Part shown: one piece after another, positions 3,987-62,545 of the stretch
How positions within the stretch are numbered: position 1 is the stretch's first letter
How the letters are laid out: each line of letters opens with the position of its first letter
Assembly (NCBI GenBank): GCA_016927905.1
Contig: JAFGLW010000026.1
Location: 43,586 to 107,585, forward strand
Origin: a candidate division CSSED10-310 bacterium
GTDB taxonomy: Bacteria; CSSED10-310; JAFGJC01
Reading direction: 5' to 3'
Length of the DNA: 64,000 bases
Position numbers and translations under genes: made by a program
The notes under the pieces: generated by a model
The model's input: only the letters and a program-made list of their open reading frames with translations
Told to the model about the DNA's origin: nothing
The model's database searches: none

Positions 3987-4609
3987 TGGATTCGAATCCC
4001 TGGATCTGGAATACGATCGCGGCATTCTTCACCATCGGCACGTTTTCCTTCCTTTACAAGGATAATCCGCTCTATAAAATTGCCGAATCCGTTGTAGTGG
4101 GCATCGCGGCGGGGTATTTTGCCGTTCTGCTGTTCTGGACCAGCCTGCGGCCGAAATTCTGGGATATGATCGTTTACGAACACAAGTACTGGTATGTCAT
4201 TCCCGGATTGCTGGGCATCATGATGTATTTCCGGTTCAGCCGAAAATGGGGTTGGCTTTCCAGGTATCCACTGGCCCTGTATATCGGGATCGGCTCGGGA
4301 ATCGCCATTCCGCTCATGCTTCAGACATTTGTCTTGAGACAGCTGGAAGCCACCATGCTTCCAATCGGATTTGCATCGTTCGAAGGATTCAGCAATCTTT
4401 TGGTTGTGCTGATGGTACTGGCGGGTTTGATCTACTTTTTCTTTTCCATGGAGCACAAGGGTGTTGTGGGGAAAACCGCCACTTTCGGTATCTGGGTAAT
4501 CATGATTGGATTCGGCGCGTCGTTCGGATACACGGTTATGGCCCGGGTATCGCTGCTGATCGGCAGAATTCAATTTCTTCTGGGAACATGGTTGCATCTG
4601 GTGGATTGA
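3986..4609 (+). CDS. integral membrane protein (~6 TM), unknown function
   Basis: TGATG junction with the previous gene. 207 aa, highly hydrophobic. Confidence 0.65.
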   Translation: MDSNPWIWNTIAAFFTIGTFSFLYKDNPLYKIAESVVVGIAAGYFAVLLFWTSLRPKFWDMIVYEHKYWYVIPGLLGIMMYFRFSRKWGWLSRYPLALYIGIGSGIAIPLMLQTFVLRQLEATMLPIGFASFEGFSNLLVVLMVLAGLIYFFFSMEHKGVVGKTATFGIWVIMIGFGASFGYTVMARVSLLIGRIQFLLGTWLHLVD

Positions 4610-6660
4610 CTCCGCGCCCGAGTCTTGGGTTTTCACTGAGACTCGTTGCGTTTTTCACGGGTTTAATTCTGGTCGTCACCGGTCATCTGATCCTGTTCAA
4701 TCCAGAACATTACGGTCACCGGCTGGACAGATTTCCGGGCCAGCTTGTGCGGGAATTCACGCGCTTCAGGCTGGACATCCTGCCTTATGGCGTTCTGCCG
4801 GGAATCATGCTGTTCTTTCTGGGAACCCTGCTCATGGCGGTTTTGCTGGCCGGGAGAAGCAGCCAAACCGGCGAATCCGCTTGTTCGATTCCACCCGTTC
4901 GATGCAATCCGTTGAGATGGACCGGATGGCTGGGTCTGGCCGTTGCCGTGGGATTCAGCCTTTGTGCCGCGGGGATGCTGGCCCGGGAATCCCCGCCGCC
5001 GGCAGCGGCCGTATTCTGGTTTTCATCGATGTGGATATGGTGCGGGTGGTTGTATTTCAGGGACCGGGACCGGGATACCCGCCCGGGATACCCGCTGTCG
5101 GGCCGGGAAACAGGTATTGTATTGATACTGATGCTGGTGAATCTGGCCTGGGTGTCTCACGACCTCTATGACTGGCGCTGGTCGGGCACTCCGGATGAAG
5201 CCCATTTCTTCATGACCGCCAGGGCATTCATGGAAGGAAGGCTGGATCGGTTCATCCTGTCGGAAAACGGCGTGTTCGGTTACCATCCGGTCCTGTCAAC
5301 CTGCTATCAGATCTTCTTCATGCGGCTCCCGGGGCCGGACGGGTACGGCTGGCGGCTCTCGTCGGCTTTTGCCCTGTCGGTTACTCTGCCGTTTATCTAT
5401 ATCCTGGGGCGCGAGTTATGGAATCGCCGGACCGGGATCCTGGCGGCAGTTATTTTCGGATGGACCAAGATCGCGGTCGGGTTTTCACATCTGGGGTACA
5501 ACAATGTTCAAGTCTATCCCGTACTGATTGGATCCCTGGCGCTGTTCGTTTGGGCATGCAGGCGGCGGAGTCTTACCGGATATTTTCTTTCCGGATGGAT
5601 TGCTGGAATCGGATTTTACACTTACTATGCCGCACGGCTCGCGCCCATCCTGACCATATTGCTGGGGTTGTGCCTGGGTGGATTACCTCTGATCCGCCGG
5701 GACCGGCAGCGAACGGCCGTTTTATTCCTGGGAATCATGCTGGCGGTCATGCCGCTTTTTCTTCATCCCGGAGATTTCCTGGCTCACATGCTGCAGCAGA
5801 CCGCCGTAACCGGTGGCGTCCAGATCACGCATGAGGACGTTTCGTATTATCTGGGAAGATATTTGAAGACGGGAGAGCATGGGACCCGGATAATGGATCA
5901 CTGGTTTCTGACATTCATTCACGGATTGTATTTCCGGTGGCCGCATCATTTTCAAACCCATCCCGTGGTCGATCCGATATCGTATTCACTCGCTTTCATC
6001 GGGTTATGGATCTGCCTGCTCGAGATGGCGCGAAACCGTCAGAACCGCTTTCTCGGCCTTTCGTTTCTGGTGACGTCTTTTGTGGTTGGAGCGATCTCAT
6101 CTCACGACCGCCCACCGTTAACCCGGCTGCTGGTTCTATCACCGTTTCTGGGACTGCTCGCCGCCGTTGCTCTCGAGCGCGTGCCGGGGGTATTTGCGAC
6201 ATCAAGGAAAACCGTCCGATCCCTGGCGGTTGCCGGTGTCGTTCTGATAACGGGATGCGTGGTCGCATGGAATGTCACGGCGATACACATCAGCCTGAAT
6301 CGGGACCATCACGGATATGGCGACGGCACTACCGGCGAATTGCTGCGGCAGTCCAGGCTGTTCCCGGAAACCACCCAAATCGTCTATCTCCAGCGTGAAG
6401 GGACCCACATGCAATGTGTGGACCTGATCATGGATGAATACGGATTTGGAAACAGGATGACGCTCTTCCGTCCTCCGGACAACCGGGCATTCAGACACCT
6501 GTCGAAAATACAGCCGCCTTTCGCCGTATTCCTGGATCTGGACAACCTGCAGGAATCAGTAAAATTTAAAATGCTGCTGAACAGCCGGTTTCCGCAGGGA
6601 AACTGGCGGCACACAGATCCCGGCAGACGATGGTCTCTGATATATTTCCATATTCCGTGA
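4588..6660 (+). CDS. GT-C fold glycosyltransferase, PMT/ArnT-like (GT39/GT83, PMT_2-type). Start is uncertain (ATG 4588; alternative ATG 5029)
   Basis: More than 10 TM helices. First extracytoplasmic loop has ..WVSHDLYDWRWSGTPDEAHFFMTARAFMEGR.. (DE-type motif typical of ArnT/PMT). The track ORF start at 4246 lies inside the previous gene in another frame. Confidence 0.7.
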   Translation: MVASGGLTPRPSLGFSLRLVAFFTGLILVVTGHLILFNPEHYGHRLDRFPGQLVREFTRFRLDILPYGVLPGIMLFFLGTLLMAVLLAGRSSQTGESACSIPPVRCNPLRWTGWLGLAVAVGFSLCAAGMLARESPPPAAAVFWFSSMWIWCGWLYFRDRDRDTRPGYPLSGRETGIVLILMLVNLAWVSHDLYDWRWSGTPDEAHFFMTARAFMEGRLDRFILSENGVFGYHPVLSTCYQIFFMRLPGPDGYGWRLSSAFALSVTLPFIYILGRELWNRRTGILAAVIFGWTKIAVGFSHLGYNNVQVYPVLIGSLALFVWACRRRSLTGYFLSGWIAGIGFYTYYAARLAPILTILLGLCLGGLPLIRRDRQRTAVLFLGIMLAVMPLFLHPGDFLAHMLQQTAVTGGVQITHEDVSYYLGRYLKTGEHGTRIMDHWFLTFIHGLYFRWPHHFQTHPVVDPISYSLAFIGLWICLLEMARNRQNRFLGLSFLVTSFVVGAISSHDRPPLTRLLVLSPFLGLLAAVALERVPGVFATSRKTVRSLAVAGVVLITGCVVAWNVTAIHISLNRDHHGYGDGTTGELLRQSRLFPETTQIVYLQREGTHMQCVDLIMDEYGFGNRMTLFRPPDNRAFRHLSKIQPPFAVFLDLDNLQESVKFKMLLNSRFPQGNWRHTDPGRRWSLIYFHIP

Positions 6661-15042: not shown

Positions 15043-17256
15043 ATGAGTCGATGGTTCAAGGTTGCGTTCTTGGTTTTTATCGCGTGTCCGTGCCTGCTTT
15101 CGGCAGCGGATCCGGAGCGGGTGTTTAGGTGCGGAACGGCGGAGATTACGCTTGAGGTTCCGACGCAGGAGCAGTGGCGGGCGATCCGTGAGGTTCGGGA
15201 ACGGGACCGGTCCCTTCCGGAATACAATGTCGGCGACACCCGGATATTCTGGGTATGGGACCTGTCAGTCATGCCCCCGGTAGACATCCAGATCTCCGCA
15301 ACGTGCCGGGCCAAGGGTGACCGGGGCTATGTCTGGGTGTCGGACACCGAATGGGGAACGGCGGTAGACCAGACGGATGTGGACGGGGTGTTCACTGCCT
15401 GGGAAATCGCCACGCCGCCGGAGTCCATCGACCCGACCCGGGGAATCTGCCAGATCGCCGAAACGGTGTTCGGACCCGTGCCGGACGAACTGGACAACGA
15501 TCCCAGGGTATATGTTTTCTTTTACGATATCGGTTCGTACCACGGCTACACATTCGACGGATTCTGGAATGTGTACGACCAGATGACGGATGCGGAAGCC
15601 CAGATGTACGGCAGGCATTCAAATGAATGCGAGATCGTCTATCTGGACTGCAATCCGTCCGATCCGGACGACCCGTATATGTTGGGAGTGCTGGCGCATG
15701 AGTTTCAGCATCTGATCCACTGGGGTGCCGATGTGGATGAAGTCACCTGGGTCAACGAAGCCTGCTCCCAGCTTTCCTGGTTCGTCTGCGGGTTCGGCAC
15801 AGACGGCGCCGAAAATGCTTTTGCCAACAACCCGAACAACAACCTGGTTTCCTGGGATCAGACCAGCGGGGATTACGGCCAGGTGATGCTGTTTTCATTG
15901 TATCTGTATGAGCAGTTCGGCGGCGCCGGATCGATTCTGGAGATCGTGGCGAATCCGGGTAACGGGTTCAGTGGAATCGGGGCGGCCCTGACCGGTCTCG
16001 GGTACCCCTGGGATGCCGAACAGGTGTTCAACGAGTGGGTGGCAGCCAATTTCCTGGATGATCCATCCATCGACCGGGGTCAATACGGGTACGTGCTGTT
16101 CGATCCGCCGCCTTTCAAGATCCAGCAGACATTCACGGTTTTTCCAACGGGACTTCAGTCGGCTTCCGTAGATGAATGGGCGACACGGTATTACCGTTGC
16201 ACCGGCGGCCAGGTACAGTGGAACCTGGATGTGGATCCCGGGGCGGAACCGGTCAGTCCGTTCCTGGCGGCAACCGATTCGGGGGATGCCTTGCGGGTGA
16301 TTCCGCTGGACGCGACCGAAAATGTCATCCAGGCCCGGATCACCGCGACGGCCGATGCAACCGCGGATATCATCCTGGCCAATCACGATTCCGCGGCGGC
16401 GCCCGTGACCGTTCCGTTTGAGATGCGGGACGAAACCGCGGACGATGTAACGCCGCCGTTTGTCCGGGAAGCTTCACCGTGGGGCGTTTGCGGGCCGACG
16501 GCTTATGCGGAGTTCCGGATCCGTGACGAGACCGGAATCATAGACGCTGAAACACTGGCGCTGCTGGTGGACGGACAGCCGCCGTCGAATGAACCGGTGA
16601 TGGAACCGAAGCCGGACGGCGACCTGTTCGTGATGCTGAGTCTTTCGGAGGTTCCAATGGACCAGGTGGTCGACATCGAGGTGCGGGTCAGCGACACAGC
16701 CGGCAATGTCATGACGCCGTTTCACCTGGTTTTCATGATGACCGGGTCCCCGCAGCCGACCGCCACACCATCCGGACCGACCGCCACACCATCCGAACCG
16801 ACCGCCACACCATCCGAACCGACCGCCACACCATCCGAACCGACCGCCACACCATCCGAACCGACCGCCACGCCGGTCCCGCCGACTCCAACTCCCGGGT
16901 GCGACACACTGGGCGTGACGCTCTGGATGACGTCGGATTATTTCACTCCGGGCGATCCCTGTGCATGCACGGTGACCGCGTGCAATCCCGGATCGGAACA
17001 TTATCCGGATTTGCCGCTTTTTGTGATTCTGGACGTTTACGGGCTGTATTTCTTCGCGCCGTCGTTCGGGGAGTTCGACTACTTTGAGATCGACCTGGAT
17101 CCGGGCGATGTGGAAATCGGGGTTCTGCCGGAATTCGCCTGGCCGGAAGGCGCCGGCACAGCATCCGGCATTCTCTGGTACGCCGCCATGACCGACCCGG
17201 GGATCACGCAGCTCTTCGGGGAAATGGACACCTGGGAGTTTGGCTGGGGCAATTAG
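15043..17256 (+). CDS. secreted zinc metallopeptidase (gluzincin-like HEFQH..E) with Pro/Thr-rich linker and a conserved ~115-aa C-terminal domain
   Basis: Signal peptide MSRWFKVAFLVFIACPCLLSA. HEFQHLIHWGADVDEVTWVNE zinc site. (PTATPSE)n linker. The C-terminal domain is shared with the genes at 21536 and 60527. Confidence 0.8.
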   Translation: MSRWFKVAFLVFIACPCLLSAADPERVFRCGTAEITLEVPTQEQWRAIREVRERDRSLPEYNVGDTRIFWVWDLSVMPPVDIQISATCRAKGDRGYVWVSDTEWGTAVDQTDVDGVFTAWEIATPPESIDPTRGICQIAETVFGPVPDELDNDPRVYVFFYDIGSYHGYTFDGFWNVYDQMTDAEAQMYGRHSNECEIVYLDCNPSDPDDPYMLGVLAHEFQHLIHWGADVDEVTWVNEACSQLSWFVCGFGTDGAENAFANNPNNNLVSWDQTSGDYGQVMLFSLYLYEQFGGAGSILEIVANPGNGFSGIGAALTGLGYPWDAEQVFNEWVAANFLDDPSIDRGQYGYVLFDPPPFKIQQTFTVFPTGLQSASVDEWATRYYRCTGGQVQWNLDVDPGAEPVSPFLAATDSGDALRVIPLDATENVIQARITATADATADIILANHDSAAAPVTVPFEMRDETADDVTPPFVREASPWGVCGPTAYAEFRIRDETGIIDAETLALLVDGQPPSNEPVMEPKPDGDLFVMLSLSEVPMDQVVDIEVRVSDTAGNVMTPFHLVFMMTGSPQPTATPSGPTATPSEPTATPSEPTATPSEPTATPSEPTATPVPPTPTPGCDTLGVTLWMTSDYFTPGDPCACTVTACNPGSEHYPDLPLFVILDVYGLYFFAPSFGEFDYFEIDLDPGDVEIGVLPEFAWPEGAGTASGILWYAAMTDPGITQLFGEMDTWEFGWGN
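16756..16876 (+). repeat. tandem 21-bp coding repeat (ccgaccgccacaccatccgaa, ~5.7 copies) encoding (PTATPSE)n linker
   Basis: Direct inspection: five near-identical 21-nt units, in frame. Confidence 0.9.
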
Positions 17257-18612: not shown

Positions 18613-19182
18613 ACGCCTCCTCCTCATTTTGGATCTCTCCTCCAGCTTCACGCCATAAACCTCCGATATCTCCCACAATTTTACCACATATCGGCCAGCA
18701 AGAGAAAACCGTTGGGGTAGAAACCGAGCACATCGGCACGAAATGTGCCGGTCCGGCCACTCGTGATCGATGCTGATCCGGACCGTCCGGACCGTTTTTG
18801 ACACCAACTCAAGGGTAAAGTTGGCGCAACCGCGCCGCTTTTTCACCCGAACGTACTCGCCGTCGTCTTTTTCGATGCGGAAGGCATCTCCGGGAAGCTG
18901 AGCTCGGAACGCATCCCGGATGACAGTGGTACGCGGTTTTCACTGGTGCCTTTAAACAATTTCCACGACAACGGTGATCGGTTCACCGCCGTTCTGGCTG
19001 ACTTTGAAGACGATCTGCCCGTCGGATTTCGCGCCCCTCGCTGCACTGGATCCGGTATTTGTTCCCAAAGCAGGCTCTGACGGGCAGAGTCAAATTGATC
19101 AGTGCAAGAGCCAGGGTGGCGGTGGCAAAGTATTGAAATTATTTTATGCGCACAGAATCGCTCCTTCAGTTCCGGTTCCCGT

Positions 19183-19500
19183 TCAAACCACTTTCTTTTT
19201 AGTCCAGAACGGCCGCCAGTAGACGGGTTTGGAGAAGCATGTCCAGGCCCATTTCATGATGTCCACCATGTAGAACGCCGTCCACAGCGCCCAGAGAATC
19301 ATCGCCAGCCGGTAGAACAGCACGTGGATGGAAATCACTCCCGCCCCCGGATACTCCGGTCCGCTCGCGTCCTGATACCACCTCAGCATGCCCGCGTACG
19401 ATCCGTTTCCGGTGATGCTCATGTCCGGGCGGCCCAGCAGTCCCTGGCCGACGGCGACGATCAGGGAGATCAGGGCGATGCCGGAGAACAAATGGAGGAA
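19183..19500 (-). pseudogene. 3' fragment of a membrane-protein gene, apparently truncated by the adjacent IS remnant
   Basis: Hydrophobic C-terminal segment (..ILWALWTAFYMVDIMKWAWTCFSKPVYWRPFWTKKKVV*). The frame continues into the transposase remnant without a credible start. Confidence 0.3.
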
Positions 19501-19524
19501 ATAGGATCAGCCCAGCGACAATCC

Positions 19525-19776
19525 CCCAATGATTATGATCTTTCCGCAACGATCAGAAAATGGAGGGAAAGAAAAGCATGTCGCTTTGAGATGCCGTTCC
19601 TGCCCCCATATAGTCCGGAACTGAATCCTGTTGAGCGTGTTTGGAAAATGACAAGGAGGAAAGCAACGCATAACAAATACTTCGATTCACTCCAGGAGGT
19701 GTCTTCAGCGGTGGAATCCACATTTAAAACGTGGCGATATGCAAATGATGTTCTAAAAAGATTGTGCGCAATTTAA
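19525..19776 (+). mobile_element. IS630-family (DDE_3) transposase C-terminal remnant (pseudogene)
   Basis: ..RKWRERKACRFEMPFLPPYSPELNPVERVWKMTRRKATHNKYFDSLQEVSSAVESTFKTWR matches the conserved IS630/Tc1 C-terminal block (LPPYSP-LNPIE-W). No N-terminal HTH or DDE portion is present. Confidence 0.65.
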
Positions 19777-21535: not shown

Positions 21536-24500
21536 ATGGAGGTACTCATGAAAGCATTGAAATCAGGCGGATATTTTATGAATTTATTCGGTATGGTTCT
21601 TTGTGTTGCGGCAATGCCCGTAATGGTTCAGGCGGCTGAATACCATGTGGACATACCCATTTCGGGACATGCAACTGGCGTGAATTCAGATGGTTCCCAC
21701 TCGGTCACACTCGACGACTTCGGATATCTGAACATTCCCGGAAAACCGAAACTGCCCTCCCGGATATTCGCGGTAGCGCTGCCGCCGGGAGCGGTTGTGC
21801 GGTCTGTTGAAGCGCTGCCCGGTGCGGAGATTGTTCTGCCGGGAGAATACCGGATCGAACCGGTGCCGGTGTACCGGGTCATCGGATCGGAAGATCCCGA
21901 TCTGTATGCCGAGGATCTGGCCGGTTACCAGGCAAATTACAATTCTGTTTACTCCGCGGATACACCTTACCCGGAATCCATGATTGAGTTTCTGGGGATG
22001 GCGGGCATGCGGAAATACAACCTGGCGGAGATCCGGGTGACACCGTTCCAATACCGTCCCGTATCCGGAACATTGGGTTATTTCCCGGAATTCCGGGTGG
22101 CGATCCGATATGAAATTCCGGACGCGGAGCCAGTCGGGATGCTGATCGACCATCAGCCCCGGATGGAGCGGCTGGCCCGTGAATTCATTTTGAATTATGA
22201 AGACGCTCAGAAATGGTATCCCGTCGACCGGACCGAGCGGGGTCTTCACGAGTTCGTAGTAATCACAACAGCGTCGCTGGAAGGTGCGGTGAGCAACCTG
22301 CTGACCTGGGAGATCACCAAGGGCAGGACCGTTCAGGTTGCCACGGTGGAGTGGATCGACACGAATTATTCCGGCCGGGATCTGGCGGCCAAAATGCGCG
22401 CGTTTCTGCTGGAAAAATATCCTTCCGCCGAGTGGGGGATCGAAGATGTCCTGCTGGTGGGTCATCACTCCGATGTGCCGATGCGGGAAGTATACCAGGA
22501 TCAGGGTTACGGCAGACCGGATACCGATTTTTATTTTGCCGAGCTGTCCCATCCCGACAACGTGAACTGGGATAACGACAACGACGGGCGGTACTGGGAA
22601 AGCGGCGACAATGCGGATTATTATGCCGAGATCAATGTCGGCCGGATTCCATGGAGCGATTACAATACGGTTGCCAGTATTTGTGCCAAATCCGTTGCAT
22701 ACGAACAGAATGACGATCCCGGTTTCAAGAAGAGCATCCTGCTTCTGGGCAGTTTTTTCTGGGCGGACACGGACAATGCAGTATTGATGGAAGCCAAGGT
22801 GAATCAATCCTGGATGTCGGACTGGAACATTTACAGGATGTATGAGAAAAATGCGACCGCATATTCGAGTTATCCCTGTGATCTGGAGATCCAGCACATC
22901 AACGTCATGTCGGTATGGCCCAACGGCCAGTATGCATTCGTCAACTGGGCCGGTCACGGTTCCTATCATGCCAGCCATATGATGGGGTACGGTTCCGAAG
23001 CGTTCATCGATTCATCCGATTGTCCCAGCCTGAACGACAACTACCCGGCCATCATTTTTGCCGATGCCTGTTCCAACAGTGACACCGATTACACCAATAT
23101 CGGCGCCAGCATGCTTCAGCGGGGCGCCGTCGGATTTGTCGGCGCTACCAAGGTGGCTTACGGCTGCCAGGGCTGGAGCAGTCCGAACGACGGCTCCAGT
23201 CAATCGCTCGACTATTATTTCTCAACCGGTGTCACCTCCACGGATTATTCCCAGGGAGCTTCTCATGTGCGGGGATTGCTCACCGTGCATCAGATCGGCG
23301 GCTGGTATTACGACAAGTATGAAATCGCCGAGTTCAATCTGTGGGGCAACCCGGACCTGGGAATGGGAGACTGCATTTCGGGTGACGGCATGATTTCTCT
23401 GGACCGCACCGCATACGCGCCGGGAATGGATGCCACGGTGAGGGTGATGGATCTGGATCTGAACCTGAACGGGGGAGTGATCGATGAAACGCAGGTGGAT
23501 ATCACCACGTTTTTGGGTGACGCGGAAACGCTCCAGTTGTTCGAAACCGGTTTTGCAACGGGTGTGTTCGACGGATCCATTCCGATTGTGGAGGGATCGC
23601 CGGTCAGCGGGAACGGCGTGCTCGAGGTGGTTCACAATGATGGATTTACGGCCACATACATTGACGAGGACGACGGTCACGGCGGCTTCAACGTTCCGAA
23701 ACAGACCATGGCATCCATCGATGCGATGCCGCCTCATATAACCGGTGTCGAAGTATCGGAAATATCCGGCAGTCTCGTGACGATTCACTGGATTACCGAT
23801 GAACCGGCGGACAGCCGGGTGTATTACGGGGAAGGAACACCCACGGAACAAGTCGTGATTTCTTCACTGACCACCGGTCACACCATCACCATTTCCGATC
23901 TCATTTCGTGCCGGTACTACGTGTTTTATGTTGAATCCTGTGATGCTGCGGGCAATTCGGCAGTGGACGACAACGGCGGATCGAACTACTGGTTCGGCAC
24001 TGAACTCGGTGGCGGATTCGATGTATCGGAAAATCCGAACTACAGCAACCGGTATGACAACGTGACCTATTACTACAATGACGGGTCCGGCACGGGAGCC
24101 ATCAGCGAGGACGGTACGGTCACCGGCTGGAAAGTACGGGCGACCAACGGCGGATCCGGTCTGGGAATGCGGATCATCCGGCCTTTGGGAGGCAGCAGTT
24201 ACGCTTATGTCGGCGGTTCATCGCTGGTGACCGTCACTGAGGGAATCAACGATTTTCCGGATTCGGTGAATATCCCGGTTCAGAGCGGGGATATCATCGC
24301 TTTGTATTACAATTCCAGCGGCAATGCGGAAGTGGGTTTGAACGGTTCCGGGGATTACCTGCTGTATTATGAAGGGGATGTCGCCAATGCCGGAACTTTC
24401 ACAACCAGCGGGAATTCATCCAAAAACGGTTATCAGCTGGTGATGATTTACGGGGACTGCGATATGGGCCCGACGCCGACTCCCGGAGCACCGACGCATA

Positions 24501-25168
24501 CGCCCGGTCCTGCAACACCCACGCCGGCACCGACCAGCACCGGAATTCCGACGCATACTCCAATGCCGACCTATACTTCCGCTCCCCCCACATCCACACC
24601 CACGGCGCCTCCGGGCGAACCGACCTACACCCCCATCCCGACCCAAACCCCCATTCCGACCTATACTTCCGCTCCCCCCACACCCACACCCACGGCGCTT
24701 CCGGGCGAACCGACCTACACGCCCATTCCGACCTATACTCCGGCTCCGACCTATACCCCGGCTCCGACCTTCACGGTTCCCCCACAGGACACGCCGACCC
24801 CCGAGCCCACATCCGGAGGCGATGTTCTGATCGATTTGAAGCTGAATCTGACGACGTTCACCACCGGCGATCCGTTCCGGCTCAGCTGTGAATGTTACAA
24901 TCCGTCCGTACCCATCACACTGGAGCAGTTTATCGTTCTGGATGTTTACGGAAGTTATTTCTTCTGGCCGGGCTGGCAGCCGGGCATGGATTACCGGCTT
25001 GTGACATTGAGCACCGGCTGGCAGACGCCCGAAACCCTTCTCGAATTCATCTGGCCGGAAGGAAATTTCGGAACGGCGTACGGCCTGTATTTCTGGGGTG
25101 CCCTGTTGATGCCCGGCAGCCATAAACTGGTCGGAAGTTACGACGTGGTCGAGTTTGGGTACCGGTAA
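21536..25168 (+). CDS. secreted gingipain-like cysteine peptidase (C25 family) with Fn3 domain, Pro/Thr-rich linker and conserved ~115-aa C-terminal domain
   Basis: Signal peptide MNLFGMVLCVAAMPVMVQA. Catalytic-type blocks NWAGHGSYHAS (His) and IIFADACSNSD (Cys). Fn3 (VTIHWITDEP..YYVFYVES). Linker PTPTPGAPTHTPG...; C-terminal domain homologous to those at 16897-17253 and 62184-62542. Confidence 0.75.
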   Translation: MEVLMKALKSGGYFMNLFGMVLCVAAMPVMVQAAEYHVDIPISGHATGVNSDGSHSVTLDDFGYLNIPGKPKLPSRIFAVALPPGAVVRSVEALPGAEIVLPGEYRIEPVPVYRVIGSEDPDLYAEDLAGYQANYNSVYSADTPYPESMIEFLGMAGMRKYNLAEIRVTPFQYRPVSGTLGYFPEFRVAIRYEIPDAEPVGMLIDHQPRMERLAREFILNYEDAQKWYPVDRTERGLHEFVVITTASLEGAVSNLLTWEITKGRTVQVATVEWIDTNYSGRDLAAKMRAFLLEKYPSAEWGIEDVLLVGHHSDVPMREVYQDQGYGRPDTDFYFAELSHPDNVNWDNDNDGRYWESGDNADYYAEINVGRIPWSDYNTVASICAKSVAYEQNDDPGFKKSILLLGSFFWADTDNAVLMEAKVNQSWMSDWNIYRMYEKNATAYSSYPCDLEIQHINVMSVWPNGQYAFVNWAGHGSYHASHMMGYGSEAFIDSSDCPSLNDNYPAIIFADACSNSDTDYTNIGASMLQRGAVGFVGATKVAYGCQGWSSPNDGSSQSLDYYFSTGVTSTDYSQGASHVRGLLTVHQIGGWYYDKYEIAEFNLWGNPDLGMGDCISGDGMISLDRTAYAPGMDATVRVMDLDLNLNGGVIDETQVDITTFLGDAETLQLFETGFATGVFDGSIPIVEGSPVSGNGVLEVVHNDGFTATYIDEDDGHGGFNVPKQTMASIDAMPPHITGVEVSEISGSLVTIHWITDEPADSRVYYGEGTPTEQVVISSLTTGHTITISDLISCRYYVFYVESCDAAGNSAVDDNGGSNYWFGTELGGGFDVSENPNYSNRYDNVTYYYNDGSGTGAISEDGTVTGWKVRATNGGSGLGMRIIRPLGGSSYAYVGGSSLVTVTEGINDFPDSVNIPVQSGDIIALYYNSSGNAEVGLNGSGDYLLYYEGDVANAGTFTTSGNSSKNGYQLVMIYGDCDMGPTPTPGAPTHTPGPATPTPAPTSTGIPTHTPMPTYTSAPPTSTPTAPPGEPTYTPIPTQTPIPTYTSAPPTPTPTALPGEPTYTPIPTYTPAPTYTPAPTFTVPPQDTPTPEPTSGGDVLIDLKLNLTTFTTGDPFRLSCECYNPSVPITLEQFIVLDVYGSYFFWPGWQPGMDYRLVTLSTGWQTPETLLEFIWPEGNFGTAYGLYFWGALLMPGSHKLVGSYDVVEFGYR
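24563..24730 (+). repeat. two tandem 84-bp coding repeats within the Pro/Thr/Tyr-rich linker
   Basis: ccgacctatacttccgctcccccca... occurs twice in tandem (PTYTSAPPT[S/P]TPTA[P/L]PGEPTYTPIPT..). Confidence 0.8.
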
Positions 25169-25211: not shown

Positions 25212-26675
25212 ATGAAGATTCTCCTGGTCGTTCCGCCCGGCGGGTATTATGCAGAGAGATGGTCCGGAGGCGTGCTGATGCCGCCTCTGGGCCTTGGTTA
25301 TATCGCCGCGTCGTCGGAACGGCTGCCCCATGAAATTCAGATTCTGGATGCCCATGTCCAGAAACTCGGGAAAAACGAAATTGTCCGGCGGGTTGAGGCT
25401 TATCGGCCGGACCTGGCCGGATTGACCTTCACGACTGAAAACCGGTTTGAAGCGTTCGATACCGCGCAACTCATCAAGGATGCGGTTCCGCACTGCCATC
25501 TGACTGCCGGCGGTCCCCATGTTTCACTGGCCGGGGAAGACACCCTGTCGGGCATTCCGGCGTTCGATTCCGTGGTGATCGGTGAAGGTGAAAAAACGTT
25601 CACCGAACTGATCGAGGCTCTGGATCAGGGTTCAGGCCGGTATCTGAACCGTGTGAACGGCATCGCCTACCGGACTTTCCAGGGCGACATCGAACGGACA
25701 CCTCCCAGAAAGCGGATTGAAAATCTGGACGAAATTCCCTTTCCGGCCCGCCATCTGTTTCCTTCTTTCGAAACCTACAACTTCAAATTCGATGTTCCCG
25801 GCAGAGGAATCCGGCGTTTTGCCAATCTCATGACCAGCCGGGGGTGTCCCTGCAACTGTAATTTCTGCGCCACACCCAAGGTCTGGGGACGAACCGTCCG
25901 CATGCGGTCCCCGGAAAACATCCTCAAGGAAATCGATCTTCTGGTGGAAACCCAGAATATCGAAGCGCTCTGGTTTTTTGATGACACCTTCAATACCTCT
26001 CCCAACCGGGTCCGGAAACTGTGCGAACTGCTGAAATCCCGCCGGTATGATCTGCCCTGGTTTTGTGAAGTCCGCGTGGATCTGATGTCCAAAGATCTCC
26101 TGGCGGTCATGAAAGACGCCGGTTGCTACACAATCGGGTTCGGTGTCGAATCGGGATCCCAGCGGATTCTGGATGAAGTGATCCGGAAAAACCTAAAACT
26201 TGAAAACGTCTACAAGCTTTATGAATGGTGCCGGGAACTGGAAGTGGTCGCCAATCCGTTTTTCATCATCAGTCACCCCACGGAAACTTATGAGGAAGCC
26301 CGTCAGACCATGGATATGATCCGGGAATTCAAGGACGGAGCCCGAATATCGATGGCGTTCCTGCATGTTTATCCCGGAACGGACCTGGAAATCACCGCTC
26401 AGAAGAACGGAACGCTGCCACCGGATTTCAGGTGGTATCAATCCGGCAGGAAAGACATCAGAACGCTGGCAAGCGCTCAAGGTAACGTCCCGATTTTCCA
26501 GGACCGATTGACCTGGAACCAGATCTCCGATCTGCTCTTTGAATGGGCTGCGATGCAGAATTATCCGGTGTGGCGCAGAATCCCGAAAGTATTGAAATCG
26601 ATCCGGACATGGGATGATTTCAAGCGGTACGGAATCATGGGCGTTCGATATCTCAATCGTCTGGTGAGGAAATAA
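25212..26675 (+). CDS. B12-binding domain radical SAM protein (class B)
   Basis: N-terminal cobalamin-binding Rossmann region (MKILLVVPPG..), then SRGCPCNCNFC (CxxxCxxC). Confidence 0.8.
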   Translation: MKILLVVPPGGYYAERWSGGVLMPPLGLGYIAASSERLPHEIQILDAHVQKLGKNEIVRRVEAYRPDLAGLTFTTENRFEAFDTAQLIKDAVPHCHLTAGGPHVSLAGEDTLSGIPAFDSVVIGEGEKTFTELIEALDQGSGRYLNRVNGIAYRTFQGDIERTPPRKRIENLDEIPFPARHLFPSFETYNFKFDVPGRGIRRFANLMTSRGCPCNCNFCATPKVWGRTVRMRSPENILKEIDLLVETQNIEALWFFDDTFNTSPNRVRKLCELLKSRRYDLPWFCEVRVDLMSKDLLAVMKDAGCYTIGFGVESGSQRILDEVIRKNLKLENVYKLYEWCRELEVVANPFFIISHPTETYEEARQTMDMIREFKDGARISMAFLHVYPGTDLEITAQKNGTLPPDFRWYQSGRKDIRTLASAQGNVPIFQDRLTWNQISDLLFEWAAMQNYPVWRRIPKVLKSIRTWDDFKRYGIMGVRYLNRLVRK

Positions 26676-42384: not shown

Positions 42385-43632
42385 TCAGGGTCGCCCCGCG
42401 ACCCGGTTCCGTCCCGCACGTTTCGCCTGATACAGCGCTTTGTCTGCCGCCCTGATCGCCTGGTCCGGCAACGGGCGGGTCGGTGAACTTGCGGCAAATC
42501 CGACACTGACCGTCACCTTGATCCCCCCGGTTTTTCTCGCCGTTCTTTTCGCTTTTCCGGTTTTATTCCGGGGTCGTCGCCGGCCTCGCAGATAAAAAGG
42601 TTGGGTTGCGATGGCTTGTCTCAGGTTCTCCAGGTGGGTTCTGATGGATTTTGCATCCAGTCCCGGGAAAATGACGGCAAATTCCTCCCCCCCGAACCGG
42701 AACACCCTTCCGCCGCCTCCGACCGAATCCAACCGGGATGAAATCATACGCAGGATCTGATCGCCGGTATCATGGCCGTAGCGGTCGTTTATTTTCTTGA
42801 AATGGTCGATATCGATCATGGCAACGGTATATTGGGTGTCCAGTTGTCCCAGATATTGATTGAGGGCCCGGCGTCCCGGAAGGCCGGTCAATTCGTCCCG
42901 GTATGCCATCCGGTACACCGCATCCAGGATGGAGGATATCACGATGAGTCCGGCTGCAGGAAAAAAAACCCGGTCGGATGGATTGGGATTTCGAATGACA
43001 AATGCACCTCCCGTTGCCACCGTTGCGAACAGATAGGCGGTGGTGACGGATTGAGGCTGTTTCCAGACTTTAGCAACGATAACGGCAAGGGCGGCGAACC
43101 AGGCCAGGCCTGCGGGCTGCCCCGGAGGAATATCGAATATCCCGCCGGGAATGATCCGGAAAGTCAGGACTTCGTGTACGGCGCTCGGAAAAAACCGGAA
43201 AACCGCCATCCACAGGAATATTTCTAACCCGATTATTCCGAAACGAAGCACATTTATCAGGGAAAAAAACCGTCTTTCCCTTATCCATACCGCGGTCATC
43301 AAATGTAAAGGAATCAAGACAGCAAGGCATTTCAACGGGTCGCCGTATCCTGTTTGTGCTGCAGGTTGGATTGTGAAAAGACGTATCCAGGTGAAATCGG
43401 CGACTCCGATCAGAATCAGGAAAAGCGACTGCCGGTGCCGCCGGTAGACGAGGCCCAGGCCGATACCCGTCAGATAGACCGCATACAGGTATGGGGACAG
43501 GAAATGACGGGCCAGCTCTGGATTGTGTCTGGCCGTTATTACAACCGGGAGGGTGATGAGAAAAACGATCCCCGACGGCCAGAGGAGATTTCCCGGGATA
43601 TTCCGTGTGCCGGTGGATTTCATGTATTCCAT
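42385..43632 (-). CDS. membrane-bound diguanylate cyclase (GGDEF domain; N-terminal multi-TM sensor region)
   Basis: ..IDIDHFKKINDRYGHDTGDQIL..RFGGEEFAV (GGEEF active site). 6-7 N-terminal TM helices. Start set at the internal ATG to avoid overlap with the upstream gene. Confidence 0.85.
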   Translation of the reverse strand: MEYMKSTGTRNIPGNLLWPSGIVFLITLPVVITARHNPELARHFLSPYLYAVYLTGIGLGLVYRRHRQSLFLILIGVADFTWIRLFTIQPAAQTGYGDPLKCLAVLIPLHLMTAVWIRERRFFSLINVLRFGIIGLEIFLWMAVFRFFPSAVHEVLTFRIIPGGIFDIPPGQPAGLAWFAALAVIVAKVWKQPQSVTTAYLFATVATGGAFVIRNPNPSDRVFFPAAGLIVISSILDAVYRMAYRDELTGLPGRRALNQYLGQLDTQYTVAMIDIDHFKKINDRYGHDTGDQILRMISSRLDSVGGGGRVFRFGGEEFAVIFPGLDAKSIRTHLENLRQAIATQPFYLRGRRRPRNKTGKAKRTARKTGGIKVTVSVGFAASSPTRPLPDQAIRAADKALYQAKRAGRNRVAGRP

Positions 43633-57461: not shown

Positions 57462-58832
57462 ATGACCGGCAACGATTACTATATGGATTGTGGAGGGAAT
57501 CAAACAATTGTGAATCGATCCGGTACCGGCAGGGATGATCTACTGCTCGAAATCCGCCGAAACGGAGTGGCGGGTGCCGGGGGAGGGGGTTTCCCGACTC
57601 ATGTCAAACTAAACTGCCGGGTGGACACGGTGATTGCGAACGGCGCGGAATGTGAACCGCTTCTCTGGAAAGATAAAACTTTGATGGCCCAGCATCCGGA
57701 CATCATTATCCGGGGATTGATGATCGCAATGGAAATCACAGGATCCGGTACCGGCATAATCGGGCTCAAGAAAAAGGCGACTCAGGCGGTGGATGCCCTG
57801 TCCGGTCATATCCAAAAGCCCATCCGGCTGCACCTTCTGGATGACACCTATCCGTCGGGGGATGAATTTGTCCTGACTTATGAAACGACAGGCCGGGTAC
57901 CGCCTCCCGGAGGTCTTCCGCTTGATGTCGGCGTGGTCATGCTCAACGTGGAAACTCTTTTCTGGATTGGATCGTCCCGTCCGGTCACTCACAAATGGGT
58001 CACAGTCGCCGGTGCGGTACCGGCTCCCAAGACCCTGGTCGTTCCGATCGGTTATCCCGTCCGGGCCGCACTGGCGGCGTGCGGATGGGAACCGGATCAG
58101 GGAACGAGAGTACTTGAAGGCGGTGTCATGATGGGGCGTCTGCTGCCCGATCTGGACGGTCCGATAACAAAAATTACGAACGGGCTGATCGTATTGCCTC
58201 GGGATCATCATTTGATACAACGGTACGAAAGACCCCGGCGTACGGTCAGCAGAATCGCCCGGTCCGCCTGCGATCAGTGCAATTTCTGCACGCAGCTATG
58301 CCCCCGATATCTTCTGGGACATCCGGTGGAACCGCATCTGGCCATGCGGCACATCGCCATGGCACCGGAGAACTCCCTGCCACCAACGGGGAGCCTGTAT
58401 TGCTGCGGCTGTATGCTGTGCTCGTTATGGTCCTGTCCGGAAGATCTCGATCCCGGTGCGATCACATTCGATTATCGGCGGATTCTCAGCGAAAACAAAA
58501 CCAGTACCCGTCTCAAGGCCCGGGAACCGCATCTGCTGTACCGGTACCGGCGACCCACTCTTTCCGGATTGAAACGTCGGCTGGGGTTGGCCTGTTATGC
58601 GGATGCGGCGTTTCCTGTGGAACATTTGACGCATGAAACCGTGAGTATCCCCCTGAAGCAGCATGCAGGAATACCGGCAGAACCGGTTGTCAGTCCGGGC
58701 GACCGGGTTAAGATGGGGGCCATCATCGGAGATATCCCCGATGGCGGCATGGGTGCGTCCGTCCATGCGTCCATTGACGGAGTGGTTCAGGCGGTTTCCA
58801 GTCGGATAACAATTCAAGGAGATAACCGGTGA
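57462..58832 (+). CDS. pduS: PduS-like RnfC-family flavin/Fe-S oxidoreductase (cob(II)alamin reductase-type), BMC-associated
   Basis: GAGGGGFPTHVKL (RnfC/NuoF-type SLBB/FMN region) and two 4Fe-4S motifs (CDQCNFCTQLCP; CCGCMLCSLWSCP). 456 aa versus 451 aa for Salmonella PduS. Immediately followed by a pduT homolog. Confidence 0.75.
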   Translation: MTGNDYYMDCGGNQTIVNRSGTGRDDLLLEIRRNGVAGAGGGGFPTHVKLNCRVDTVIANGAECEPLLWKDKTLMAQHPDIIIRGLMIAMEITGSGTGIIGLKKKATQAVDALSGHIQKPIRLHLLDDTYPSGDEFVLTYETTGRVPPPGGLPLDVGVVMLNVETLFWIGSSRPVTHKWVTVAGAVPAPKTLVVPIGYPVRAALAACGWEPDQGTRVLEGGVMMGRLLPDLDGPITKITNGLIVLPRDHHLIQRYERPRRTVSRIARSACDQCNFCTQLCPRYLLGHPVEPHLAMRHIAMAPENSLPPTGSLYCCGCMLCSLWSCPEDLDPGAITFDYRRILSENKTSTRLKAREPHLLYRYRRPTLSGLKRRLGLACYADAAFPVEHLTHETVSIPLKQHAGIPAEPVVSPGDRVKMGAIIGDIPDGGMGASVHASIDGVVQAVSSRITIQGDNR

Positions 58833-59383
58833 TCGTCACGATGGGTTTGCTCGAGTTTTCTTCCATCGCTTCCGGGCATGTTGCGGAAGATGCGATGCTC
58901 AAGGCGGGAACCGTTGATCTGGTTCTGGCCCGTACAATTTGCTCCGGGAAATATCTGGTGATCGTGTCCGGTGATGTGGATGCCGTCAGAGCCGCATTGT
59001 ATTCCGGGAAGGAAAACGCACAGGGAACGGTGGTTGACGAACTGCTTCTGCCCTATGTTCATCCGGCCGTGTTGCCCGCGCTGGCCTGTGTGACCGAACT
59101 GACTCCGGAAGATCGGGATGCGATGGGAATTGTGGAGACTTATTCGGCGGTTTCGGCGGTCAGGGGTGCTGATGCTGCGTGCAAGGCTGCCGATATCATA
59201 CTGTTCAGGCTGCACCTGGCAATGGCTGTCGGCGGTAAAGGATATTTCTGTTTTACGGGAGATATCGCATCGGTGCAAGCGGCGATTGATGCGGCTGTTG
59301 ATTTGGTCGGCGGGGAAGGTCTTCTGGCGGGCGCCGTCACGATTCCCCGCCCGAGGGAAGAACTGTTCCGGGAGCTTTTCTGA
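58829..59383 (+). CDS. pduT: tandem-BMC-domain shell protein, PduT homolog (BMC-T with conserved Fe-S ligand Cys)
   Basis: 184 aa (same as Salmonella PduT). Two BMC repeats (..GLLEFSSIASGHVAEDAMLKAGTVDLV..; ..MGIVETYSAVSAVRGADAACKAADIIL..). ..ARTICSGKYLV.. aligns to the PduT Cys38 loop. ..IPRPREELF C-terminus. Start overlaps the pduS stop. Confidence 0.8.
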   Translation: MIVTMGLLEFSSIASGHVAEDAMLKAGTVDLVLARTICSGKYLVIVSGDVDAVRAALYSGKENAQGTVVDELLLPYVHPAVLPALACVTELTPEDRDAMGIVETYSAVSAVRGADAACKAADIILFRLHLAMAVGGKGYFCFTGDIASVQAAIDAAVDLVGGEGLLAGAVTIPRPREELFRELF

Positions 59384-60526: not shown

Positions 60527-62545
60527 TTGCCGTTCAGGATCCCGGGAGGATGGCTGAAGATGATTGAAAAACTGTGGCGTATTCTGCTGATCGGATCATT
60601 TTTCGTCGCGGGAGCACTGGCGGACGAATATTATCAATGTCCGTATTCCGGCCCGACGGACGATGTCGAGCTGGCATATTCCGCGGAACATTATGCCCTG
60701 TCTCTCGAATTGACGTTCCCTGCGGAATCCCAGGAGGGGGCTCTGTTCGGGAGTGTGACGATTGACGGGATCAGTCTTTCTGACGATCTCGACCGGATCG
60801 CTCTCGATTTTCTGGATGTTGAAACGGTTGAGATTTTCACGATTCACCTGGACGGATCCACCGCCGATCACCAATTCGAAAACCATGAAATCGCAATAAC
60901 GGTACCGGTCCCCAAAATGCAGGGGGAGCTGTTTCAAGTGATTGTGGAGTACCGTATTGAGGGTTTGAAGCATTTCCAGTTCCGGCCCCGTGGGGAGGAA
61001 CGGTATGCGTTCAACTCCATGGTGGCCAATTCGCGATGGTTTCCCTGTCTTCATGATCCGCGTGACAAGGCAACATACGAGTTCACGATCACGGTTCCGA
61101 GCGGGAAAACGGCGGTTGCCAACGGTTTGCTCCAGTCCATAATCGATAACGGCGATCGTACCGAGACATACCGATGGGTGGAAAGCGATCCCATGGCCAC
61201 ATACCTCGCAACGATCAATGTGGCGGATTACGAAGTTTATCGGCATGACTACAACGGCATGCCGGTCGTTTATTACATCGTTGGGGAAAAAATGGCGGCC
61301 GCCCAGTATGATTTCGCACACGATCATGACATCCTGGATTTCTTTACGTCGGCATTCGGCCCCTATCCGTTCGACAAGCTGGGGCTGGCGGATGTGCCGC
61401 TGGGTGGAGCCATGGAAAACCAGGACATGATCAGTTTCGGGACGAATCTCATCACCGGGGACCGCACATACGAAGATACGTTTGCGCACGAGATATCCCA
61501 TATGTGGTGGGGTGATTCCGTCACGCTGACCGGCTGCTTCGATGTCTGGCTGAACGAAGGATTTGCGAGTTACTGTGAGGCGTTGTGGGAAGAGCACTTT
61601 TACGGCCAGGAAGCATACGATGCGGTGATGGCGGCGCATCGGGATAAATATTTCAGTGAAGATGAAACACACCGGTATTCCATTTACGATCCGGAGGTCG
61701 TTTGGAGTGCAACGACGTATAAGAAAGCAGCCTGGGTGCTCCACATGCTGCGGTGGGTATTGGGAGAAAGCGATTTCTGGGCGTTGCTGCCGGATTATTA
61801 CGACCGGTTCAAATACGGGCATGCCACAACCGATGATTTTCAGGCGGTTTGTGAAGATCATTATGGATCATCCCTGGAATGGTTCTTCCAGGAATGGATC
61901 TACGATCAGGGATATCCGGAGTTTGAACTGGCCTACCGGATCGTCAAAGATGGGGAATATTTGCAGATGCATGTAAAACAAGTGCAACAGGATGCTCCGG
62001 CAGTTTTTGTCATGCCGGTTGAAATCGAATGGACCGGAACGGGTGGCCAGACATGTTCCGAGATTGTGTGGATTGATGAATCAGAGGAATTGTTCCGGTT
62101 CGAGATTGTCGAAGATCTGAATACGGTTGCATTTGATCCCCGTGAAAAAATATTGAAAAAGGTTGAATGGACTGCCTGGACGGCTGAAACCGGAGTCAAA
62201 CTGTGGATGCCGGGAACCATGTTTCATGCCGGCGAGCCATGTGCGTGCAGCGCAACCGTGCTGAATGCCGAAATCGAAACGCTGGAGAATTATCCGCTGT
62301 TCGTCATTCTGGATGTATTCGGGCAATATTATTTCGCTCCTTCATTCAGCGATTTCGACAACTTCCTTTCCTGCCATCCCACCTTTCCCATCGGGTACAC
62401 CGCGGTTTCGGTGCTTCCGGAGTTTGCCTGGCCGGCAGGGGCCGGAACGGTTGCCGGGGTGCGCTGGTATGCCGGCCTGACCAACCCCGGAATGACGGCG
62501 CTTTGCGGTACGATGGATATCTGGGAGTTTGGATGGGACAGTTGA
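60527..62545 (+). CDS. secreted M1-family aminopeptidase (GAMEN + HEISH..E) carrying the shared ~115-aa C-terminal domain
   Basis: Signal peptide. GGAMENQ exopeptidase motif. HEISHMWWGD-(x18)-WLNEGFASY zinc site. C-terminus homologous to 16897-17253 and 24816-25165. Confidence 0.8.
   Translation: MPFRIPGGWLKMIEKLWRILLIGSFFVAGALADEYYQCPYSGPTDDVELAYSAEHYALSLELTFPAESQEGALFGSVTIDGISLSDDLDRIALDFLDVETVEIFTIHLDGSTADHQFENHEIAITVPVPKMQGELFQVIVEYRIEGLKHFQFRPRGEERYAFNSMVANSRWFPCLHDPRDKATYEFTITVPSGKTAVANGLLQSIIDNGDRTETYRWVESDPMATYLATINVADYEVYRHDYNGMPVVYYIVGEKMAAAQYDFAHDHDILDFFTSAFGPYPFDKLGLADVPLGGAMENQDMISFGTNLITGDRTYEDTFAHEISHMWWGDSVTLTGCFDVWLNEGFASYCEALWEEHFYGQEAYDAVMAAHRDKYFSEDETHRYSIYDPEVVWSATTYKKAAWVLHMLRWVLGESDFWALLPDYYDRFKYGHATTDDFQAVCEDHYGSSLEWFFQEWIYDQGYPEFELAYRIVKDGEYLQMHVKQVQQDAPAVFVMPVEIEWTGTGGQTCSEIVWIDESEELFRFEIVEDLNTVAFDPREKILKKVEWTAWTAETGVKLWMPGTMFHAGEPCACSATVLNAEIETLENYPLFVILDVFGQYYFAPSFSDFDNFLSCHPTFPIGYTAVSVLPEFAWPAGAGTVAGVRWYAGLTNPGMTALCGTMDIWEFGWDS

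Follow-up and report, generated by a model that had tools for sequence, protein, structure and literature searches.

We describe here a protein module of approximately 110 residues that lies at the C-terminus of three secreted peptidases encoded within 64,000 nucleotides of DNA (positions 43,586 to 107,585 of contig JAFGLW010000026.1; hereafter the window) from a bacterium of candidate division CSSED10-310. We characterize the three proteins, the wider family to which their terminal modules belong and the functions that the module may have.

Three secreted peptidases ending in one module

The three genes all lie on the forward strand. Gene A (15043-17256) encodes a secreted protein of 737 residues for which HExxH gluzincin-type metalloprotease (M30/InhA-like) is a reasonable label on sequence similarity: lugdulysin and related neutral metalloproteases (7bb8) match residues 48-310 with an E-value of 2e-7, the remote homologs are immune inhibitor A proteases, and the NCBIfam model MXAN_6640_HExxH gives a weak match. 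No Pfam family matched 15043-17256. The gene product is identical to a database protein of a candidate division CSSED10-310 bacterium (P0087, locus tag JXA40_09835). Gene B (21536-25168) encodes a secreted C25 (gingipain-family) peptidase of 1210 residues together with its propeptide (PF01364, E 6.8e-34; PF08126, E 6.9e-8), and gene C (60527-62545) a secreted M1 aminopeptidase of 672 residues (PF01433, E 8.9e-30; PF17900 (M1_N), E 5.2e-13), syntenic orthologs of which also carry the module at four other loci (L057, L066, L083, L084). The three open reading frames (ORFs) proposed in a preliminary description of the window are therefore real, with the C25 and M1 assignments confirmed by Pfam and the gluzincin label made reasonable by the match to 7bb8.

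All three N-termini resemble signal peptides, with maximal 10-mer Kyte-Doolittle hydrophobicities of 2.6-2.8; here and throughout, signal peptides were called by this crude hydrophobicity heuristic rather than by a trained predictor. That of A is predicted to be a Sec signal peptide occupying 15043-15105 (MSRWFKVAFLVFIACPCLLSA, followed by AD), with a maximum of 2.81 and a cleavage site placed by eye. The listed start of gene C is a TTG codon at 60527, with an ATG 11 codons downstream at 60560; the ATG results in a canonical signal peptide (MIEKLWRILLIGSFFVAGALA, followed by DE) and is probably the true start. The start codon may also explain why a database look-up with the exact 672-residue sequence returned no entry.

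Over their last ~119 residues the three proteins can be aligned, with 32 of the columns invariant. In pairwise BLASTP comparisons the modules of A and C are 54% identical (E 2e-42), those of A and B 39% (E 6e-17; 37-39% when the column alignment is counted too) and those of B and C 33% (E 1e-14), bearing out the earlier claim that a single C-terminal module is shared by three unrelated peptidases. A six-frame scan of the window with a hidden Markov model (HMM) recovers exactly these three copies and no other below an E-value of 0.3. Copy A spans residues 619-737 (16897-17253; E 2.3e-53, envelope 16927-17253) and contains a Cys at the linker boundary (Cys620, codon 16900-16902) as well as Cys at family positions 25, 27 and 32. 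Copy C (62180-62542; E 1.2e-48, envelope 62207-62542) keeps the CxC motif and lacks the Cys5/Cys32 pair. Copy B (24812-25165; E 2.1e-32, envelope 24842-25165) has none of the four conserved Cys and replaces FFAP with FFWP/FFYP. The same divergent, Cys-less subtype is seen in P0084 and in the third copy of the module in P0085, and thus the family has at least two subfamilies, one of which lacks disulfide stabilization. The proteins terminate in FGWGN (A), FGYR (B) and FGWDS (C), the module stopping 1-2 residues before the stop codon. As previously noted, a Pro/Thr-rich linker precedes the module in two of the three proteins. The linker of A (16732-16896) holds a 21-bp tandem repeat present in 5.5 copies (16756-16871) that encodes PTATPSE repeats, and the long linker of B (24443-24811) contains tandem repeats of 18, 45 and 90 bp, while copy C is joined straight to its cargo.

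An uncatalogued family of C-terminal domains

An exhaustive HMM search over 1.84 billion cluster representatives (clusters at 50% identity) places 2,333 clusters in the module family at E ≤ 1e-3 and 1,813 at E ≤ 1e-10. Among the 148 best-matching representatives, which were used for a census of position, the module ends 0-5 residues from the C-terminus in 141, and the same is true of 95 of 97 genome ORFs. A signal-peptide-like N-terminus is present in at least 95 of 139 representatives that start with Met, most of the others being visibly truncated gene calls, and in 56 of 62 genome ORFs with complete 5' ends. The module is preceded by a Pro/Thr-rich linker in 91 of 145 representatives. In a Pfam census of 75 complete members the cargo comprised right-handed beta-helices, PMP repeats, NosD, S8 subtilases, LTD domains, Kelch/FG-GAP/BNR propellers and C25 and C1 peptidases, and M1 peptidases are carried as well. 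Judged from these family assignments, the range is typical of extracellular and surface proteins. The census called for in the preliminary description has therefore revealed a large family that is indifferent to its cargo, sits at the extreme C-terminus almost without exception and is associated with proteins bearing signal-peptide-like N-termini and usually a Pro/Thr linker, in agreement with what had been proposed from the three window copies.

That description had set the finding of internal copies of the domain against a sorting or anchoring role. Some 3-5% of copies are genuinely internal, with an in-frame linker and a further domain following the module, which bears that objection out in part. 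Two internal architectures occur: module, Pro/Thr linker and FGE-sulfatase domain (P0183, and P0212, which corresponds to L086 1501-3498); and LamG-like domain, Pro/Thr linker, module and repeats (P0105, P0141). Within each architecture the two representatives differ by more than 50%. The FGE-sulfatase type of domain is also found in the ring protein PorK/GldK of type IX secretion systems (T9SS), and FGE domains are widespread; the presence of one after the internal module may be a coincidence.

Many database entries of the family are spurious proteins of ~109 residues, since gene prediction often splits these genes at their Pro/Thr linker. In public annotations an ORF antisense to the linker is called as a gene and the real gene is cut to a 'hypothetical protein' of about this length. 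The DNA shows that at loci L001 and L002 a long ORF extends through the linker and has the module as its in-frame end, an antisense gene having been called over the linker, and that at L004 there is a frameshift inside the linker. We therefore rejected as a gene-calling artifact a candidate stand-alone small protein of 105-120 residues starting at the conserved Met of 'LxMPS'. Long Arg/Gly-rich ORFs (GGRFGWCGGRFGWCGG...) lie antisense to the Pro/Thr linkers on the minus strand of the window at 16474-17001 and 24416-25123 and at L001 638-1234.

The host range of the family is narrow. A pattern scan of one genome per species across 185,579 species gave 95 confirmed loci, and the best 80 of these come from only 10 metagenome-assembled genomes (MAGs), labeled candidate division CSSED10-310 or unclassified 'uncultured bacterium'; all of the named family members observed are attributed to CSSED10-310. 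The number of distinct module genes is at least 26 in one MAG and at least 21 in another, and at 13 loci two or three such genes lie within ~6 kb. CSSED10-310 is an uncultured phylum that is Gram-negative by prediction and is reported to be the sister of Acidobacteriota (PMC8248873); 'Ca. Getofiota' is another name under which it is listed (PMC11382960). Its identification with Zhuqueibacterota, a phylum of the Fibrobacterota-Chlorobiota-Bacteroidota (FCB) group, was dropped, as the placeholder name corresponds to 'Ca. Getofiota', and the Zhuqueibacterota paper was not among the results of a full-text literature search for CSSED10-310.

The three window modules have no match in Pfam or NCBIfam. 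When 60 family members were scanned against both collections at E ≤ 10 the only matches were single-member chance ones, and the T9SS-related models PF18962, PF13585, PF13860, TIGR04183 and TIGR04131 matched none of the 60 even at this threshold. When all PDB chain sequences were searched with a profile of the 60 sequences, the only matches were chance ones to a beta-lactamase and a death domain, and literature searches returned nothing on the domain. Aligned by hhalign to three genuine T9SS type A C-terminal domains (CTDs), which were taken from C25 homologs, the 60-sequence profile gave a probability of 0.7% over 15 aligned columns. These columns are the G-x-x-[WF]-Y block that had been called loosely reminiscent of T9SS CTDs. 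An AlphaFold2 model built from the 60-sequence alignment (pLDDT 97.7, pTM 0.88) has eight beta strands, and the predicted fold is a generic Ig-like beta-sandwich; neither a T9SS CTD nor a PPC domain was among the matches listed in a fold comparison. The earlier judgments that the module is uncatalogued and matches neither the type A nor the type B CTD thus survive the comparison of sequences, and neither the profile comparison nor the listed matches of the predicted fold point to a T9SS CTD.

Conservation within the family is extensive. A census of the columns of 227 distinct modules shows many conserved aromatic residues and a last strand of the form [FW]-x-F-G-W-x-x; the final 12 columns hold no conserved Lys, nor was a PNPF motif found. 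Each of the four Cys is present in 83-86% of the 227. Cys5, at the boundary of linker and module, and Cys32 are both present in 186 modules, both absent from 35 and discordant in 6 (Fisher p=3e-34), whereas Cys25 and Cys27 covary more weakly (p=1.6e-4). Since Cys5 and Cys32 are gained and lost together, a disulfide is indicated and hence a module that folds outside the cytoplasm. In five syntenic M1 orthologs the module is 52-56% conserved compared with 52-57% for the catalytic domain, and modules on unrelated cargo within one genome are 54% identical, the same level as between the M1 orthologs. This equal similarity on orthologous and unrelated cargo implies that about half of the positions are fixed family-wide. 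Taken together, these sequence patterns indicate that the module is a functional, extracytoplasmic domain under strong constraint.

Such constraint bears on the proposal that the module is a passive structural, folding or stabilizing domain, acting as an intramolecular chaperone or a spacer with no addressing role. A generic Ig-like sandwich with no partner found among its neighbors would suit this proposal. Fixation of about half of its positions across unrelated cargos would not, nor would the strict C-terminal position in a slot shared with known localization tags (see below), and in 91 of 145 proteins a flexible Pro/Thr linker parts the module from the cargo, against which it then cannot pack. 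We regard a purely passive domain as highly improbable.

Functional interpretation of the module

The strongest functional argument comes from what occupies the module's position in homologs of its cargo. Planctomycetota, Zixibacteria, WOR-3, Desulfobacterota and CSSED10-310 all have homologs of the C25 peptidase with 55-61% identity. In the 120 best homologs the C-terminal slot is taken up by a dockerin in at least 31, by a T9SS type A CTD in 3 and, in another 3, by an IPTL-CTERM-like tail consisting of a motif, a transmembrane (TM) helix and basic residues, while the C25 proteins at module loci L012, L021, L070 and L071 end in the module. The tails of the C25 homologs (P0288, P0293, P0302, P0317, P0323 and others) vary, with PKD or fn3 domains among the alternatives. 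From these comparisons the swapping of tags known as 'choice-of-anchor' has a clear natural example in the conserved C25 peptidase. Among homologs of the metalloprotease cargo, the module terminates all ten of the closest, and the next tier includes 45, from Cloacimonadota, Eisenbacteria and WOR-3, that have PF18962 and/or PF13860 CTDs at their ends. That known tags fill the module's position on two cargos elsewhere supports a role as a surface-localization tag. On comparative evidence the module is probably CSSED10-310's own C-terminal surface-targeting or anchoring tag.

The same slot comparison weighs on the idea that the module is instead a substrate- or ligand-binding domain resembling a carbohydrate-binding module (CBM), which would direct the enzymes to an insoluble environmental polymer and not to the cell's own surface. 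A beta-sandwich behind a Pro/Thr linker is the classic CBM layout, and the disulfide, the many conserved aromatics and the tolerance of internal positions would all fit. Against this, homologs fill the slot with localization tags and not with CBMs, there is no sequence link to a Pfam CBM, and it is not glycoside hydrolases that dominate the cargo but proteases, beta-propellers, PMP repeats and adhesin-like beta-helices. At least 20 copies per genome of one family confined to a single phylum would also be unusual. This idea is in our judgment unlikely.

Our preferred reading is that the module is a retained, non-covalent surface anchor of CSSED10-310, to which we give a chance slightly below even. 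The precursor would cross the inner membrane via Sec by means of its N-terminal signal peptide, and the module would fold into its beta-sandwich in the oxidizing periplasmic or extracellular space, where in most copies a disulfide would staple Cys5, the first residue of the module, to Cys32 in the 'VCNP' strand. The folded module would then be recognized by a single, shared partner in the envelope, be it a surface glycan or a protein that acts as scaffold or carrier, and by staying on the mature enzyme would provide a non-covalent tether to the cell surface on a flexible, possibly glycosylated Pro/Thr stalk. Such a tether would follow the logic of dockerins, SLH domains and those T9SS CTDs, of type B, that are not cleaved. 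We infer each of its three components, namely that the proteins are at the surface, that there is a partner of one of these kinds and that the module is retained and not cleaved. The internal copies argue against an obligatorily cleaved terminal signal and for a retained anchoring module, and the strong constraint and the disulfide staple we also count in favor of retention. Other anchors, namely TM tails and a dockerin-like tag, stand behind similar Pro/Thr linkers in the same genomes (see below), which likewise favors an anchor. Of the sorting and anchoring roles suggested in the preliminary description, it is accordingly the anchoring one that is favored and obligatory cleavage that is weakened, while PEP-CTERM- and LPXTG-type signals are excluded by the lack of a TM helix.

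Several observations weigh against a retained anchor. A tail of only 1-3 residues after the last strand is more typical of signals that are read at a free C-terminus, and the equivalent tag on the metalloprotease cargo elsewhere is the cleaved type A CTD; both weaken the reading. The internal copies are few, and of these P0141 lies on a contig of 1.6x coverage and P0183 is apparently truncated within its FGE domain. The generic Ig-like fold, as modeled, carries nothing specific about function. Finally, clustering of the genes neighboring the module genes at the 80 loci and in the window revealed no recurrent partner or machinery gene.

These points lend themselves to a different account, in which the module is an export signal: once Sec had carried out its step, an outer-membrane translocon would recognize the folded module and usually remove it or exchange it for a lipid or glycan anchor, in the manner of T9SS type A CTDs. 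The translocon could be that of a highly divergent T9SS, making the module a further class of CTD, or could belong to a different, undescribed pathway. The module has the hallmarks of a T9SS CTD in being, as modeled, a globular sandwich at the extreme C-terminus of many unrelated Sec-dependent cargos, and its C-terminal tail is very tightly limited in length. Type A/FlgD-Ig CTDs occupy its slot on the metalloproteases of Cloacimonadota, Eisenbacteria and WOR-3 and on some C25 peptidases, and there is precedent for T9SS CTDs dissimilar to types A and B (PMC12398890). The sequence comparisons point the other way, with an hhalign probability of 0.7% against type A CTDs, no match of any of 60 members to CTD models at E ≤ 10 and no conserved Lys in the last strand. 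Neighbor clustering over the 80 loci and the window yields no recurrent PorP/SprF-like or PorU-like gene, and neither the window nor the surroundings of the module genes showed a T9SS gene. Of 84 C-termini that lack the module in these genomes, two or more were matched by no T9SS CTD family among the 25 families listed, so that a single match is possible. The host phylum, in its reported position as sister to Acidobacteriota (PMC8248873), would fall outside the FCB group, to which the T9SS is stated to be exclusive (PMC12398890), and internal copies of the module exist. We consider the export signal possible, though the less probable account of the tag.

Candidate partners among the neighboring genes did not withstand closer inspection. 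A PorU-like C25 'sortase' beside the module genes proved to be a single-linkage artifact, the 12-member C25 cluster having ~460-residue proteins of another type mixed into it; protein B itself matches the PorU model at an E-value of only 0.018, the model's cut-off being 420 bits. B12-radical SAM enzymes, a molybdenum-cofactor (MoCo) oxidoreductase, an EpmA-like synthetase, HAD and GNAT proteins and a response regulator were rejected as reflecting conserved synteny and not being secretion genes. B12-binding radical SAM genes beside module genes number 10 members at 6 loci (for example L029 4706-6358 on the minus strand), a recurrence that is probably conserved synteny. The genes downstream of the three window genes encode an AAA_14 protein, a B12-radical SAM enzyme and a response regulator. 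The B12-radical SAM gene (25212-26675) lies directly downstream of the C25 gene and is followed by DUF5698/DUF2179 and acyltransferase genes.

Other features of the window are noted here for completeness. At 4246-6660 lies a gene for an 804-residue membrane glycosyltransferase of the PMT_2 family, resembling dolichyl-phosphate-mannose protein mannosyltransferases, which might, speculatively, be the enzyme that O-glycosylates the Pro/Thr linkers. An RnfC/Nuo51-like flavoprotein (Complex1_51K, RnfC_N and Fer4 domains) encoded at 57462-59383 is followed by a shell protein with tandem bacterial microcompartment (BMC) domains, which by its domain content suggests a microcompartment locus just upstream of the M1 gene region. 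Between the two module genes A and B an ORF of low third-position GC (0.46) is found at 19102-19776, the C-terminal part of which (...LPPYSPELNPVERVWK...) may be a remnant of an IS630/Tc1-type DDE transposase.

The module MAGs also contain tags of other types. Some of their other secreted proteins have C-termini in which a Pro/Thr linker is followed by a short motif, then a TM helix and then a basic tail (with ...PPIPATDQTGITLLILGFGLMLVKTGLRTR or ...AVIPAAGFPALSLMIFFTTLCIIFGRQR immediately before the stop codon), namely those encoded at L029 3353-4423, L041 3371-4423, L049 3557-5149 (minus strand) and L047 4506-6335 (minus strand). The motif of these tails resembles 'IP[AT]' in an architecture of exosortase/sortase type, and no named family matched. 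The protein encoded at L038 4580-6346 (minus strand) has a dockerin-like tag behind a Pro/Thr linker (CRNTGDANGDGSISSGDAQ...CNGDGVVSSGDAQ), and a system of the cohesin-dockerin type may coexist with the module in this lineage.

The T9SS CTD, PEP-CTERM, LPXTG and the dockerin are tags through each of which a dedicated machine for sorting or assembly came to be discovered. The present module might similarly serve for recognition or attachment in a pathway, not described before, of outer-membrane secretion or surface anchoring, in a phylum of diderms that is not part of the FCB group, a proposition we consider doubtful. Were it true, the pathway would be an independently evolved functional analog of the T9SS CTD system with a translocon, carrier or scaffold of its own, and would define most of the cell-surface proteome of CSSED10-310. 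More broadly, in a phylum that is rare and uncultured, each genome has dozens of secreted proteases, adhesin-like proteins and propellers that carry a domain of an uncatalogued family. If the module is a localization tag, a single HMM reads out the surface and secreted proteome of that phylum, there is a machinery or envelope ligand to be found, for which phylogenetic profiling on existing near-closed genomes could suffice, and evolution has provided a natural example of address tags being swapped on conserved cargo. What is new here is the family, which is absent from Pfam and NCBIfam; the general kind to which it belongs, working like established address tags, is known.

Comparison with known tags and domains

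PEP-CTERM, IPTL-CTERM, LPXTG and MYXO-CTERM signals share with the module the character of a cargo-independent C-terminal tag that is lineage-specific and expanded within genomes. These tripartite signals are, however, ~25-35 residues long, being built from a motif followed by a TM helix and a tail of basic residues and served by an exosortase or sortase, whereas the module is a soluble sandwich of 110 residues that lacks a TM helix. PPC (PF04151) and CBM2 domains are, like the module, C-terminal beta-sandwiches on secreted hydrolases, and CBM2 is likewise linked through Pro/Thr and stapled by a disulfide. The module differs from both in having no sequence match to them, in a cargo that extends beyond peptidases and glycosidases and in its restriction to one phylum. 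In the case of CARDB (PF07705; PDB 3idu and 2kl6), identity is 13-14% without an HMM match, and dozens of unrelated Ig-like domains resemble the module at least as much. Usually, moreover, CARDB and MG domains occur internally and in repeats, whereas the module is a single terminal tag.

The dockerin comes closer in its manner of use. It resembles the module in being independent of cargo, in lying mostly at the C-terminus and occasionally internally, in following Pro/Thr linkers and in forming sets of similar paralogs that number tens per genome. The two are distinct in construction, a dockerin being a duplicated calcium-binding helix-loop of ~70 residues and the module all-beta as modeled, with no match to PF00404 and no DxNxDG loops.

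With the T9SS type A CTD the module, a generic Ig-like sandwich as modeled, shares its place at the extreme C-terminus of unrelated Sec-exported cargo and its tens of copies per genome, and the two occupy an identical slot on orthologous C25 and InhA-like cargo. The module block 'W-x-x-G...G-x-x-[WF]-Y' also resembles the type A block 'WD...SG-x-YFY'. Type A CTDs have conserved motifs A-E, including PNPF, and a functionally important last-strand Lys that contacts PorV (PMC12398890). The module has neither PNPF nor a conserved C-terminal Lys, and has no detectable homology to them (hhalign 0.7%). It is also longer (~110 residues compared with ~80), contains a conserved disulfide, usually follows a Pro/Thr linker and is occasionally internal, and its host phylum is reported to lie outside the FCB superphylum (PMC8248873). 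The 'type C' T9SS CTD of ChiA likewise shows no sequence similarity to types A and B (PMC12398890). On the sequence and profile features tested, the module falls outside the T9SS CTD, dockerin, CARDB, PPC and tripartite-signal families. From the type B CTD it is set apart by the absence of any match to PF13585 or TIGR04131 and of a cognate PorP/SprF-like gene downstream of the module genes. It is nonetheless the behavior of the type B CTD, a globular C-terminal tag that stays uncleaved and is held non-covalently by its partner, that we favor for the module.

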